A stretch of DNA of 63,829 nt, filler included, from Licmophora abbreviata (GCA_900291995.1; 12 parts of 12 records of this genome joined end to end with filler, not necessarily neighbours in it), one strand, 5' to 3'. Numbered from the whole stretch's first letter, positions 28,795-33,714 are shown. The notes: a model not told the origin generated them from the letters alone. Numbers and translations: made by a program.

Positions 28795-30441
28795 ATGAGC
28801 AGTGCTAGCGTAGAGCAAGAAATTCTGTCACTTCGTGCCAAGACGGAGGAAGAGCTGATAGCTAGCCGTGAGGAGAGGCAAAGACTCGAAGAGGAGAATT
28901 ATATGAAGGAGCTACATATTCTCGAGTTGGAACGCGAGATTGCGGGCTTTGAGCAAGAGAAGTCATTTGGGAGTATTGCATCCCTGAGTGCTACCGAACT
29001 AAGCATTTTTCGACAAGCAAAATATCCGTCGGCGTCTCTGTCGTCTCCCCGCCGGGTGCAGCGGCGTTGGTCTCTAAGCAAATCGCCGAGTTCCCCAGAA
29101 TCCGAAAAAGTCGATTCCAAGAAAGGGCGTCGCCATTCGTCGTCATGGAGAGGACCAACAAAGTTGGACGACGAAAATGAGGTTTTGGAGTACCTTTCCT
29201 GGATTGAACACGGGACGAAGATAATTCTAGAACACTCGAAGAAAGAGCTCACATGTCGAGAGGAGCAAGTCACAGCGCTTGAGATTACTTCCCTCGCCCA
29301 GGAGGACGCCATCTATAAATGCCGCGACAAACTCTTGGTGGTCAGAGACAACAAGGCGTCTCATAGTGGGAGTCGAGGTGACCAAACAGTCTTCAAAAAG
29401 GACGAGACTGATGACCAAACACTGGCGCTTACCACTCAAATGGAGGAAGCAAGTGAACTGTCTACACAAATAGAAGCCGACCTGAGGTGTTTGAGGAAAC
29501 TTCGTGAGCTCCCGGAAGCTGATACTCTTTGTGAAATGGAAGTTATACGAGACGAGATGATTGAGACTAGACGAAAGATGGAGTCTACCGAGAAAGAACA
29601 CGAGACCAACTTGGCCCTTGTCCGACAGCATCTCGAAACGGAAAAGTCAAAGCTTTCCCTGATTGAGATCCATCTTGGAATAATGAAGAGAGTGGGTATG
29701 CGCAGCTTACAAAGAATGGAAAAGAAAGCACTGTCGGGAGATGACCCGCAGCAATTGTCGACGATCCTACTACGGGCTGTTCATGCTTTAGACGAGGAGC
29801 TTGAGATACGGCGACCTCATTCAGACACGGAGGTTTCCCGCCTCGTACATGCAGCTACGGCAGTAACCAGGCAATCAGAAGCAAGATTATGCTGCATCCA
29901 GGCTTTGATGAGTTTGATTGAGTCTCTCCCGGATGATAGCTGCTGGCGAAGCGACATGCTGGATCGACTGCAGGTCGCTTCCGGGCGAGACGACGCTTCG
30001 TTTGTAACTGTACTGGATCACTTGGAAGGCGTGATGTGCATTGCAGTTTCAGAGTATGCAAAGGACAAAACACTGCTCTCTACGCATCTAGAAGTGCCTG
30101 TGGAGGATCAAGTCGCGGAGGCGTCTCGCGAAGATGCCTATGATCAGCTGATCGATCTGAAGACGCAGTTGGCAAAAACTGAAGACGAGTATGAATCTCA
30201 AGAGGCGAGCGTTCAAGCACTAACGCGCTTACTGGAAGGCGAACAGAAAAAGTACAAAGACGAGAATGGAACCTTAGGAGCGAGGATAGAACACCTTAAA
30301 AAGACGACTGAACAGCAGACAAAGCTGTGGGATTCCAAGGACCAAGAGCTCAAGCTGAAACTGGAAGAGGTCAAAAGCGTCAAGCACAGGACTGAGCAGT
30401 TGCGAGAAGTGCTGAAACACTTGCCTGGCCATCAATTATAA
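28795..30441 (+). CDS. Hypothetical coiled-coil protein (548 aa)
   Basis: Long ATG-initiated ORF rich in E/K/L/Q heptad-like segments. Confidence 0.75.
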   Translation: MSSASVEQEILSLRAKTEEELIASREERQRLEEENYMKELHILELEREIAGFEQEKSFGSIASLSATELSIFRQAKYPSASLSSPRRVQRRWSLSKSPSSPESEKVDSKKGRRHSSSWRGPTKLDDENEVLEYLSWIEHGTKIILEHSKKELTCREEQVTALEITSLAQEDAIYKCRDKLLVVRDNKASHSGSRGDQTVFKKDETDDQTLALTTQMEEASELSTQIEADLRCLRKLRELPEADTLCEMEVIRDEMIETRRKMESTEKEHETNLALVRQHLETEKSKLSLIEIHLGIMKRVGMRSLQRMEKKALSGDDPQQLSTILLRAVHALDEELEIRRPHSDTEVSRLVHAATAVTRQSEARLCCIQALMSLIESLPDDSCWRSDMLDRLQVASGRDDASFVTVLDHLEGVMCIAVSEYAKDKTLLSTHLEVPVEDQVAEASREDAYDQLIDLKTQLAKTEDEYESQEASVQALTRLLEGEQKKYKDENGTLGARIEHLKKTTEQQTKLWDSKDQELKLKLEEVKSVKHRTEQLREVLKHLPGHQL

Positions 30442-30837: not shown

Positions 30838-31635
30838 ATGAAAGGATCGATTCTGTGCCTAGTCGCCATGCTGGGCGCAGCGCATTCTGTGCGCGGCCCC
30901 TTTGTAGCCACCAAGGCAGCGACGTATCGTCCAACATTACCGAGTGTTTTGGGCATTCCTCGTGGGGGAATGCAGCTCTTCGTCAAGACGCTAACAGGAA
31001 AGACAGTGTCTATTGAAGTCGAGGAGGGGGAATCGATCGAAGACGTCAAGGCAAAGATTGCTGAAAAGGAAGGGATCCCTCCGGAACAACAACGCTTGAT
31101 TTTTGGTGGACAGCAGCTGCAGGACTCCAAGACGCTAGACGACTACAACGTCGGCGACGATGCGACGCTGCATCTTGTGTTGAGACTCCGCGGTGGAGAC
31201 CGTTTCCGTGCTTCGGTGGATAAGGTATTGGGCCGTGGGTCGTTTGAAGTGGACGAGACGTTTGTCAAGGATCACCTGGTGGGACTCACTGATGAGGATC
31301 GCGACCTCATGAACTCCTTTGTCGCTCAGAGCCGCCAAGAAACATCTCTTCCGGAGGGAGACGAGAAGGAGGAAGAAGAACGCGAAATGCACGCTCGTCG
31401 TGCCCTGTTTCGTATCGGCGACGTGTTCTCCAAGCCGAACGACGACAGTCCGCTCAAGGATGTGCACAACCCGACCATGGTACGTGCCGGCGAGTTTGAC
31501 TACAAAGGACAGCTAGTCCCTACAGATGGACGCAGGGACACAAAGCTGAGCAAACTGTTCAGGAGACGGGACAACAAGGGAAAGCTGCTTGACGCTGTTC
31601 ACCGAATGAAGCTCGACCAACAGAAACTGCCTTGA
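30838..31635 (+). CDS. Signal-peptide-bearing divergent ubiquitin (ubiquitin moiety 30970-31197) with 145-aa C-terminal extension; probable periplastid symbiont-type ubiquitin
   Basis: 44-aa presequence [17 protein letters not shown]...IPRGG, then a 76-aa [12 protein letters not shown]...[10 protein letters not shown] with Q at position 48 and D at position 63. Confidence 0.9.
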
Positions 31636-31698
31636 ACGAGCAACTTGAGTTATTGTAATTGCGATATCGCGGTGGATAGGTTTAACTACTTTTAGCTC

Positions 31699-33192
31699 TT
31701 ACGTTGTATGACGTGCAAACGCCACTGCAAGAACGATACCTGCGAGCGCCCCGCTCACCCATAGTTCGTCGGCGTACTTGTTGTCGGCTCTCCATTTTTT
31801 CTGCTGCGGTGTTTCTTTGGACTCGTTGGACTCTTCCTTCGAGTCTTCGGGATACGTATCGCCACCCATCCGCCATCGATATAGGGTAGTCTGTGCGGAT
31901 GGAGGACCTTTCGCTCTGAGCGATTCTTCTCGTAGTCGCTTCTCTTTCGACACTATCAGCACTTCCTGCAAGTCACGGGTGTGAACCGACAAGCTCTGCA
32001 TGAGTTCCAACGCATCGTTAAAGCGCGAGGGCTTCGATTGTGACTCCTCCGATGGAATTCGATGAAACTGGTTCCGAGCATTTTCGTGTTGATTCCACGT
32101 GCGCCAATCTTCCGCGATGGCGCCGCTGGATGATGGCATTGACGGCCTTCGAAAGTAGGCTTCGTAGATGCGGTGAAAGAACTGGACGAGTTTGGGATAG
32201 TCGGCCAGCACAATCACGAGATGAACATCACAGAGGGCATCAGCTAGATGGGCCCAGACGAGTGCATCGGCTGTCGTTGGACTTGTCGTCCCACTGATAA
32301 GGTAGTTACGTCCGTCTGACAATATGGCCTCGAGGCATTCGAATCCTTTTCGAGCGATCACGATCGCTTCTTCGGCACTCCAGAGAACTTTGAGCTGTTT
32401 CAAGGCAACCTTACGGATACTCCATGCTTGAAACAATGAAAAGAGTCGTGGTCGGTAGGAATTGGAGATGTCGTCGCACTGGCTTGCCGCTTGTTCGTAT
32501 TGCCTGCGATAAACCTGGTCCCAAGCATCATCGTCCCCATATCGCAACGAAATAAGAAGTGGATTCAACTGCGTGTACACAAGCGTCTCCAACATGTGCG
32601 CTTGTGCTTTTTGTTGAGGAGTTCTCAACTGCTCCACATCGAGATCCACCCCTCGTTCAGTTTGCAAGTAGTTGAGAATCGACGATCCCCATGGATGGTG
32701 GCGGCCTACCACGACGGGAGGTTTCGAGGGTCGAAAGTCCTTGAGGAGGGGCAGTGGACCTGTCGCTTCCATCGACGCGTAGGGAGAGTTTACCACCACA
32801 TGAGGGATGCCAGTGATGCGCAGTACCAATTGCTCCAACCACGCGATTCGATGTTGCACCAGCGTGAGGTGCTGCTGTGGATGCGTCGTCGAAAGTTGTC
32901 TACAGAAAAAGAGAAAGTCAGGACACGCAAGCAACGCCATGTGTAGTTCCACAAAAAGATGAGAACTGAGCGATTTTCCTCCGTACCTCGATATCGCAGC
33001 TTCTTCGTCCCTCCAGGCAGTGCTCGCGTTCACCTCATCATTGAGACAGTTCTGAGTTGCGCGCCGATTGCCCCAGACTTCGGTCCATCCTTCTTTTCGT
33101 TTCTCGAGCGATGGATTCCGACACCGCGACGAATCGAGATTGTGGACACTCTGAGCAATAGCCGAGCTGACTAACAGGGATAGCTCTCCCAT
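31699..33192 (-). CDS. Metaxin-like GST-fold protein with C-terminal transmembrane anchor; likely in-frame intron 32986-32900
   Basis: LRITGIPHVVVN..GPLPLL, ILNYLQ, GFECLEAILSDGRNYL, PTTADALVWAHL, YPKLVQFFHRI; hydrophobic tail LWVSGALAGIVLAVAF. Confidence 0.75.
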   Translation of the reverse strand: MGELSLLVSSAIAQSVHNLDSSRCRNPSLEKRKEGWTEVWGNRRATQNCLNDEVNASTAWRDEEAAISRYGGKSLSSHLFVELHMALLACPDFLFFCRQLSTTHPQQHLTLVQHRIAWLEQLVLRITGIPHVVVNSPYASMEATGPLPLLKDFRPSKPPVVVGRHHPWGSSILNYLQTERGVDLDVEQLRTPQQKAQAHMLETLVYTQLNPLLISLRYGDDDAWDQVYRRQYEQAASQCDDISNSYRPRLFSLFQAWSIRKVALKQLKVLWSAEEAIVIARKGFECLEAILSDGRNYLISGTTSPTTADALVWAHLADALCDVHLVIVLADYPKLVQFFHRIYEAYFRRPSMPSSSGAIAEDWRTWNQHENARNQFHRIPSEESQSKPSRFNDALELMQSLSVHTRDLQEVLIVSKEKRLREESLRAKGPPSAQTTLYRWRMGGDTYPEDSKEESNESKETPQQKKWRADNKYADELWVSGALAGIVLAVAFARHTT

Positions 33193-33714
33193 GGTAGTTG
33201 TTGATGAAGGGTACAACTTTGATGTGTGTCATGTGTGCTCGCACTTTGAACTTGGTCGCTCGGGCTCCCGTTTTGTTTGGTGTCGTCGCTCCGACGAGAT
33301 CGCACAGGCGCGCTTACTTCCTCCATTCTAAAGATTGCATGGTATCCAAAGGTCGTGATCAACAGAGACAATGACTAACAGACATCAGGTTCCTGTATGT
33401 GTCAATTTTTGATCATTGGCTATGCCAGCGCTTATGCGTAATTATCACTCTGTAAAAATGATACATGTTGTCTTTCCAAAAAAATGTAGATCAGTAAACA
33501 AAAGCAAGCCTGGTTTTCACAAGACTGTTGAAAATCATAGATAGACGCAGGAATAAAAAAGATATATTTTGATCCCGGCCGACAATCTACACAATCCTAC
33601 GACCGCGAAGCAAGCACGGAACAGGACCGTACGTTGAGTACGAACTGACTTGCGGGACCTGCGCGCGTCAGACAAACCTATACTTTATCATTCGTGAAGA
33701 GCGACTAGTCTACC

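Follow-up and report, generated by a model that had tools for sequence, protein, structure and literature searches.

The locus and the precursor

The window, i.e., the whole stretch of DNA that was analysed, comprises 63,829 nucleotides of the diatom Licmophora abbreviata (GCA_900291995.1), in which 12 parts of 12 records of the genome are joined end to end with filler. It holds a single copy of a putative periplastid ubiquitin gene (tblastn, whole window). The start coordinate given in a preliminary description of this DNA, 30838, and the layout proposed there (a leader, IPRGG before ubiquitin Met1, a 76-residue ubiquitin, and a 145-residue tail) were both confirmed by translation of the ORF: the ATG at 30838 opens a frame of 265 codons that ends with the TGA at 31633-31635, and an ORF check found no in-frame ATG between the preceding stop and 30838. 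The product (P0001) consists of a presequence (residues 1-44), a ubiquitin unit (45-120), and a tail (121-265), with the following features:

30838..31635, + strand: whole gene for the precursor; an uninterrupted, intron-free ORF of 265 codons plus TGA
30838..30888, + strand: signal-peptide-like leader, residues 1-17, with a basic K2, a hydrophobic core, and a small-x-small site (A-H-S); from hydropathy
30889..30969, + strand: transit-peptide-like region, residues 18-44, ending in IPRGG; from composition
30961..30969, + strand: upstream RGG (CGT GGG GGA), adjoining ubiquitin Met1; conserved in relatives and loci
30970..31197, + strand: single 76-residue ubiquitin unit, residues 45-120; from Pfam (PF00240, E 2e-28, match over residues 47-118), the residue table, and the model
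31189..31197, + strand: C-terminal RGG of the unit (CGC GGT GGA), where a deubiquitinase would be expected to cut and which would form the end used in conjugation; RGG ends 91/91 units
31198..31347, + strand: tail, acidic helical N-terminal part, residues 121-170, pI 4.65; from alignment and model
31348..31395, + strand: tail, acidic low-complexity linker, residues 171-186, with 8 D+E in 16; of variable length in relatives and predicted to be disordered
31396..31632, + strand: tail, basic C-terminal part, residues 187-265, pI 10.33; conserved motifs, some near the end, and a low-confidence fold

Judged by its comparison with other sequences, the ORF is not a chance one, because 363 database proteins match a profile of the tail and the tail dN/dS is about 0.13 (both described below). 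The one expression run compared gave a single 261-base contig at the locus, covering 31578-31837; the coding part is otherwise without coverage.

Upstream of the gene lies a 548-residue ORF (28795-30441, + strand) that is rich in E, K, and L and has no Pfam family at E <= 0.01. The convergent neighbour on the other side (31699-33216, - strand) encodes 505 residues with Tom37/metaxin-type and GST-fold matches (PF10568, E 1.2e-07; PF17171, E 8.7e-07). It is of the mitochondrial outer-membrane import/assembly type, and some 65 bases separate its 3' end from the ubiquitin stop codon.

The presequence and targeting

Signal and periplastid targeting of the precursor were judged by eye from sequence features. 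The core of the leader, ILCLVAMLG (residues 5-13), gives the highest 9-residue Kyte-Doolittle mean, 2.88. The region that follows (residues 18-44) has four K+R and no D/E, is rich in S/T/A/P, and contains one lysine (K26). It starts with a non-aromatic residue, V, and F/Y/W/L are absent directly after every plausible signal-peptide cut. The layout of this presequence is shared by 56 orthologous presequences. In the relevant part of the description of ASAFind 2.0 (PMC12136025), the periplastid class is set apart by the lack of F/Y/W/L at the first transit-peptide position; the leader fits this class as far as its sequence goes, and we infer that the protein is localised to the periplastid compartment.

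The ubiquitin unit and the identity of the protein

Compared with the first unit of a fungal polyubiquitin, the Licmophora unit shows 68.4% identity (24 differences), and the beta-grasp of ubiquitin is modelled with confidence by AlphaFold2 over residues 45-118 (pLDDT 77-91 per block). As the preliminary description had listed, the unit keeps K6, K11, K27, K29, K33, L8, I44, V70, R72, and LRLRGG, and it has Q48, D63, and A65; the residue table adds K54 in place of R, which had gone unmentioned. Because K48 and K63 are absent, the two commonest types of chain cannot be built.

Among the 99 family sequences examined, 68 have at least one intact 76-residue unit (91 units), and the remainder are fragments. 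(These counts are of sequences, some of them near-identical, rather than of independent lineages, and the set of loci used below overlaps the set of proteins.) D63 is found in 91/91 intact units, and so are K6, K11, K27, K29, K33, I44, V70, R72, and the terminal RGG; Q48, K54, and L8 are each found in 90/91. Position 65 is A in 75 units and S in 15. The sole unit that retains K48 (1/91) belongs to P0202, whose tail is among the most divergent (39% identity over the match).

A diatom periplastid ubiquitin that lacks K48 and K63 is already in print, attributed to Stork 2012 by papers that cite it; in the relevant passage of Fellows et al. 2017 (PMC5487736), the loss of K48 in diatoms is cited to Stork 2012 and Maier 2015. 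A 2025 phylogeny of SELMA (PMC12412216) states, in the section concerned, that plastid localisation of PUBL has been demonstrated in Phaeodactylum, Plasmodium, and Toxoplasma. Like the Licmophora protein, sUbi of Phaeodactylum tricornutum (JGI 54323) and PUBL of Toxoplasma gondii have a ubiquitin-derived domain behind a presequence and a C-terminal RGG (Sommer 2007, Stork 2012, Fellows 2017, as cited or in passages of PMC12412216 and PMC5487736). None of the database matches bore the name of the Phaeodactylum protein. Since the derived residues and the architecture are common to named diatom proteins, comparison with them supports the assignment of this protein as the diatom orthologue of the periplastid ubiquitin (sUbi/PUBL) of the SELMA import machinery. 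The preliminary description had arrived at the same identity, and the near-universal D63 and Q48 in the family, the periplastid-fitting leader, and the literature on the loss of K48 and K63 uphold it. SELMA, for which the periplastid ubiquitin is the central modifier, is the route by which almost all nucleus-encoded plastid proteins cross the second outermost membrane in diatoms, haptophytes, cryptophytes, and apicomplexans.

Relatives and the conserved tail

The preliminary description had suggested that the tail be searched and modelled by itself. A search with the tail only found 55 proteins at E <= 0.001, and a scan of 1.84 billion representatives gave 36 matches. With a profile built from 25 tails, 363 proteins match at E <= 0.01, and the listing covers the best 120 of them. 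Every match inspected is either fused behind a periplastid-type ubiquitin or is a shortened gene call whose first residue is at the RGG or slightly behind it; among these inspected matches, no free-standing tail behind a presequence of its own was seen. The best 120 of the 363 include 96 new proteins, 81 with ubiquitin sequence and 15 that begin in the first residues of the tail.

The named sources among the matches are diatoms and one bolidophyte. They include Nitzschia inconspicua, Thalassionema nitzschioides, and Discostella pseudostelligera, to which the best 120 of the 363 add Pseudo-nitzschia multistriata, Fragilaria crotonensis, Attheya septentrionalis, Cylindrotheca closterium, Amphora coffeaeformis, and a Bacillariaceae genome; the bolidophyte, Triparma laevis, is a member of the P0204 cluster. 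Among the matches listed, the closest relative of the Licmophora protein (P0210) also has 265 residues and is 78% identical over the whole length. The 68 relatives have one ubiquitin unit (45 proteins) or two exact head-to-tail units (23 proteins).

The near-invariant positions of the tail cluster in residues 138-165 and 220-259; in the acidic part they are V138, D139, F142, V143, L147, R155, M158, F161, and S165. There are no cysteines. The C-terminus is positionally conserved across diatoms and Triparma: most relatives end one residue past a conserved KLD, and the Licmophora protein runs four residues longer.

Selection was estimated from codon alignments of 22 uninterrupted loci (231 pairs, of which 61 were usable and the others saturated at synonymous sites). 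Over the 61 usable pairs, all between relatives, the tail has a median dN/dS of 0.130, against 0.012 for ubiquitin, and in the 15 least diverged pairs its dN/dS ranges over 0.118-0.280. Pairs that involve the window are all saturated at synonymous sites (21/21), with dN of 0.35-0.55 for the tail vs 0.02-0.06 for ubiquitin; the selection measured is therefore that among relatives and not that on the Licmophora lineage. By these measures the tail is functional and under purifying selection among the relatives. The preliminary description had made its reading depend on conservation of both the tail and the upstream RGG in orthologues; for the tail, the 363 profile matches and the median dN/dS of 0.130 leave that reading standing, and the RGG is considered below.

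In the AlphaFold2 model of the whole protein (mean pLDDT 66.3, pTM 0.35), three helices of the tail are predicted at pLDDT 77-85 (residues 122-130, 140-146, and 152-168), residues 172-185 are disordered, and the rest is low; the tail modelled alone has a mean pLDDT of 62.0 and a pTM of 0.25. Searches for a fold found a single row with Foldseek against the PDB (E 3.8), a best Z of 2.5 with VIA-align wide (23 rows at Z >= 2, none >= 5), and no usable match in the ESM Atlas. Because the pLDDT of the tail model is only 62, these blank fold searches say little. At the sequence level, the profile of the tail matches 0 solved chains at E <= 10, and Pfam has no family for the Licmophora tail; run on the 25 tail sequences, Pfam reports ubiquitin in three members that still contain part of a ubiquitin, and otherwise isolated weak matches. 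No UBA or other recognisable domain was found in the tail, although weak or missing matches do not exclude one.

Within the accessible literature, an analysis of the tail was not found beyond one sentence in PMC12412216 (subscription papers out of reach may say more). That sentence, in section 7, notes that PUBL proteins carry N- and C-terminal extensions, and the C-terminal extension is read there as blocking the terminal glycine, so that it is treated as uncut; the supplement has no text on it. The preliminary description had suggested that the tail could be an undescribed protein; in the literature found this holds for its analysis, but not for its existence, since a C-terminal extension is mentioned in that paper.

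Because of its length, its motifs, and its dN/dS, the tail says, as a sequence, that it is more than a cap. A weak fold, a split of charge between its two parts, and short invariant motifs make it look like a partner-binding protein more than an enzyme.

The RGG sites on either side of ubiquitin

The ubiquitin unit ends in LRLRGG (residues 115-120), and its junction with the tail is modelled as flexible (pLDDT <50 for residues 119-121 in the AlphaFold2 model of the whole protein). In the 68 proteins, the residue after the last GG is of 13 kinds (G 16, T 9, D 8, K 7, I 6, E 6, R 5, L 4, V 2, N 2, and P, A, and S one each). The sole Pro is that of P0111/L001; Pro after GG is a poor site for most deubiquitinases. 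Given the invariant LRLRGG, the exact junctions of the two-unit genes, and the freely varying residue after GG, we infer that ubiquitin is released by a cut after LRLRGG, as in other ubiquitin precursors. Such a cut would necessarily free the tail. For Toxoplasma PUBL, the C-terminal GG is reported as essential in the passage that deals with it (PMC5487736).

A second RGG directly precedes Met1 in 59 of the 61 relatives that have at least eight residues before the first unit, the exceptions being P0188 (RGG one residue upstream) and P0197 (ten residues upstream). Among the best 120 of the 363 tail-profile matches it is found in a further 62/62, which gives 121/123 relatives among the matches listed; its conservation in orthologues, on which the preliminary description had also relied, is thus borne out. 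The three positions before Met1 (-1 to -3) have a column entropy of 0; it rises to 1.2 bits at -4 (Pro in 44/56) and to 2-3.5 bits further upstream.

The DNA encoding this RGG was compared in 24 metagenome loci and the window (25 loci, a set that overlaps the set of proteins). RGG is encoded in 25/25 loci by 16 distinct 9-mers that include all four third-base variants. Its Arg codon is CGN in 25/25 loci; at the unit-unit junction, the Arg codon is AGR in 17/20. The upstream 9-mer is the same as the junction 9-mer in 0/20 two-unit genes, and the two RGG sites of the window likewise differ in their codons (CGT GGG GGA vs CGC GGT GGA). Since the codons vary freely, selection acts on the residues, and on this comparison of loci the residues of the upstream RGG are under selection across diatoms.

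The junction at the upstream site, RGG-Met-Gln-Leu-Phe, also joins the two units of the two-unit genes, which favours the idea, put forward in the preliminary description, of one protease for both ends of ubiquitin. On balance, the upstream RGG is probably a shared recognition element of all the RGG-Met junctions in these precursors. We place the chance that it is cut in diatoms somewhat below even.

Comparison with known systems

The precursor resembles several known arrangements of ubiquitin. As in the Ub-eL40 and Ub-eS31 fusions, there is one ubiquitin with a passenger directly after GG. In those fusions, a conserved passenger is made in equal amounts and is released by deubiquitinases. Unlike eL40 and eS31, the tail is no zinc-ribbon ribosomal protein (it has 0 Cys, no Pfam family, and 0 solved chains at E <= 10), and unlike the fusions the product would take the secretory route to an organelle compartment. 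The idea of a degenerate ribosomal eS31/eL40 tail was dropped, as the tail profile matched none of the solved chains at that threshold. Capped polyubiquitin genes are like the 23/68 two-unit relatives in having exact head-to-tail units, RGG-Met junctions, and a C-terminal block to remove. The Licmophora gene has one unit and is thus not of the polyubiquitin type; it also differs in its long conserved cap and its N-terminal targeting presequence.

Sde2-type proteins have a ubiquitin-fold domain whose cleavage at GG sets free a functional C-terminal protein; Sde2 is a nuclear protein, and its ubiquitin-like portion is no conjugatable ubiquitin. What Sde2 and the Licmophora precursor share is the idea that GG cleavage activates a non-ribosomal C-terminal protein; no sequence relation of the tail to Sde2 was found among solved chains or in Pfam. 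Uncleaved adaptors of the Rad23/Dsk2 type combine a ubiquitin-like domain with a recognisable C-terminal domain, e.g., a UBA; the Pfam and fold searches recognised no such family in the tail, although weak or missing matches do not exclude one.

An RGG directly before the ubiquitin domain is common to Toxoplasma PUBL (PMC5487736, in the part describing the protein) and the diatom relatives described here. By the published positions (PMC5487736), Toxoplasma PUBL differs from the Licmophora protein in that K48 is kept and only about three residues should lie behind GG; the diatom and Triparma proteins have a conserved tail of about 130-170 residues behind one or two units. The gene is otherwise an ordinary orthologue of a described protein, and what is modestly new, on the sequences compared, is an upstream RGG and a tail that are under selection across diatoms.

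A proposed route and its alternatives

The explanation that we regard as the probable one overall, given the sequence features, is that of a nuclear gene for a periplastid ubiquitin precursor from which a deubiquitinase would free both ubiquitin and the tail. In this route, the leader would bring the precursor into the ER, and the basic transit-like stretch would then direct it to the periplastid compartment by way of the ERAD-derived SELMA translocon. There, a ubiquitin-specific protease would cut after LRLRGG, producing a conjugatable ubiquitin without K48 and K63 together with an equimolar 17-kDa tail protein. The tail would be a periplastid factor that is linked to the ubiquitin/SELMA cycle and reaches the compartment solely in fusion with ubiquitin. 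A fuller proposal, in which one deubiquitinase both releases the tail, as a one-to-one cofactor of the SELMA ubiquitin cycle, and cuts at the upstream RGG, we consider unlikely as a whole from the features at hand; if true, this would be the first case of an imported organelle protein that loses its transit peptide to a deubiquitinase rather than to a transit peptidase. The gene family makes testable both the maturation of ubiquitin inside a compartment with very few known proteases and the candidacy of the diatom/bolidophyte tail as a missing SELMA component, and the conservation data pinpoint residues for mutation, namely both GG pairs and the motifs of the tail.

The fate of the tail might be different. 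If the chain stays uncut, it could be a ubiquitin-like-domain adaptor whose fold docks on the periplastid Cdc48/Ufd1-Npl4 while the tail holds a partner. A tail that is always fused and conserved would suit such an adaptor, as would the Pro after GG in P0111/L001, but LRLRGG ends 91/91 units, including the unit before the tail, and uncut ubiquitin-like domains need no such end. Furthermore, 23/68 genes have two exact head-to-tail units, as in polyubiquitin. Published work points in both directions: PMC12412216 takes the extension to remove the free terminal glycine, and Toxoplasma PUBL is unprocessed on its N-terminal side (PMC5487736), yet its C-terminal GG is essential, and the periplastid E1, E2, and E3 in the literature (PMC12412216 among the sources) need a conjugatable ubiquitin. 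We consider the uncut adaptor quite unlikely. A tail that is cut could instead be a pro-region that acts only in the precursor, by blocking the end in ER transit or by helping passage through SELMA, and is then degraded. All ubiquitin genes have some C-terminal block, the tail model has little stable fold, and D, E, N, K, R, I, or L, which are destabilising under the classical N-end rule, would be exposed after GG in 38/68. However, one residue suffices as a block and 145 have been kept, with near-invariant motifs, a dN/dS of 0.12-0.28, and a C-terminus whose position is conserved in diatoms and Triparma. A role as a mere pro-region is thus rather unlikely, and the release of a working tail protein remains our preferred reading.

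At the upstream RGG, we give an even chance to the view that it is a polyubiquitin relic that persists as a flexible, positive linker and is uncut, so that the mature protein would retain part of the presequence. Deubiquitinases normally require a folded ubiquitin before the cut, and the presequence supplies none. A linker role leaves unexplained the strict invariance of three residues in 121/123 listed relatives while synonymous change is free; it also has to accommodate the variation of the positions beside RGG and the identity of this junction with the unit-unit junction. The Toxoplasma results favour the linker. In the passages concerned (PMC5487736), PUBL has RGG immediately before its ubiquitin-like domain, and a deubiquitinase cut was expected by the authors, but tagged and native forms were all full-length with no processing seen, and a protein with the upstream GG changed to AA still complemented. 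A deubiquitinase cut at the upstream RGG is thus not a new idea, having been proposed, with a negative outcome, for Toxoplasma PUBL in that paper. As for an RGG maintained by homogenisation of the DNA (gene conversion or unequal crossing-over) instead of by selection, the two-unit genes do exist, with units that are 79-96.5% identical in DNA in 19/20 loci. This origin is nevertheless highly improbable: in single-unit genes, among them that of the window, RGG is retained although its codons differ between the two sites, and gene conversion as the cause is ruled out by the 0/20 identical 9-mers and by the different families of Arg codons (CGN vs mostly AGR). Selection on the residues of the upstream RGG is the reading that we retain, whether or not they are cut.

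Gene structures among the relatives

In a subset of the relatives, a phase-0 intron (GTGAGT/GTAAGT donor) separates the L73 codon from the R74 codon in the last ubiquitin unit. The set linked to this intron comprises the loci L021 and L022, the proteins P0152, P0123-P0126, P0150, P0174, P0177, and P0191, and the 15 short tail proteins. Exon 2 of these genes opens with RGG and the tail, so that in gene predictions the tail is frequently given as a 'hypothetical protein' of its own. The gene in the window is without this intron, unlike its closest tail relatives. An origin of the upstream RGG from an exon consisting of RGG and ubiquitin residues 1-73 was considered but is not supported, as the upstream RGG is contiguous with the presequence in L021 and L022.

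The two units of the two-unit loci (L001-L020, L023) differ by 0-2 residues in 19/20 and have a median DNA identity within the gene of 84% over 20. Units at the same position in different genes are more alike than units at different positions in 122/190 pairs. Judging from these sequences, the two-unit state is probably old; units that are alike in protein but diverged in DNA, together with the likeness between units at the same position, indicate that concerted evolution is weak.

Two members of the family depart from these arrangements. A fragment, P0172, has a unit end (LRLRGG), then eight residues that resemble the end of a presequence, and then RGG and a full unit; its N-terminus stems either from an unusual duplication that took in the presequence end or from a chimeric contig. 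In L004, the second unit is broken in frame and is 59% identical in DNA to the first, and the break is either a sequencing error or the mark of a decaying copy.
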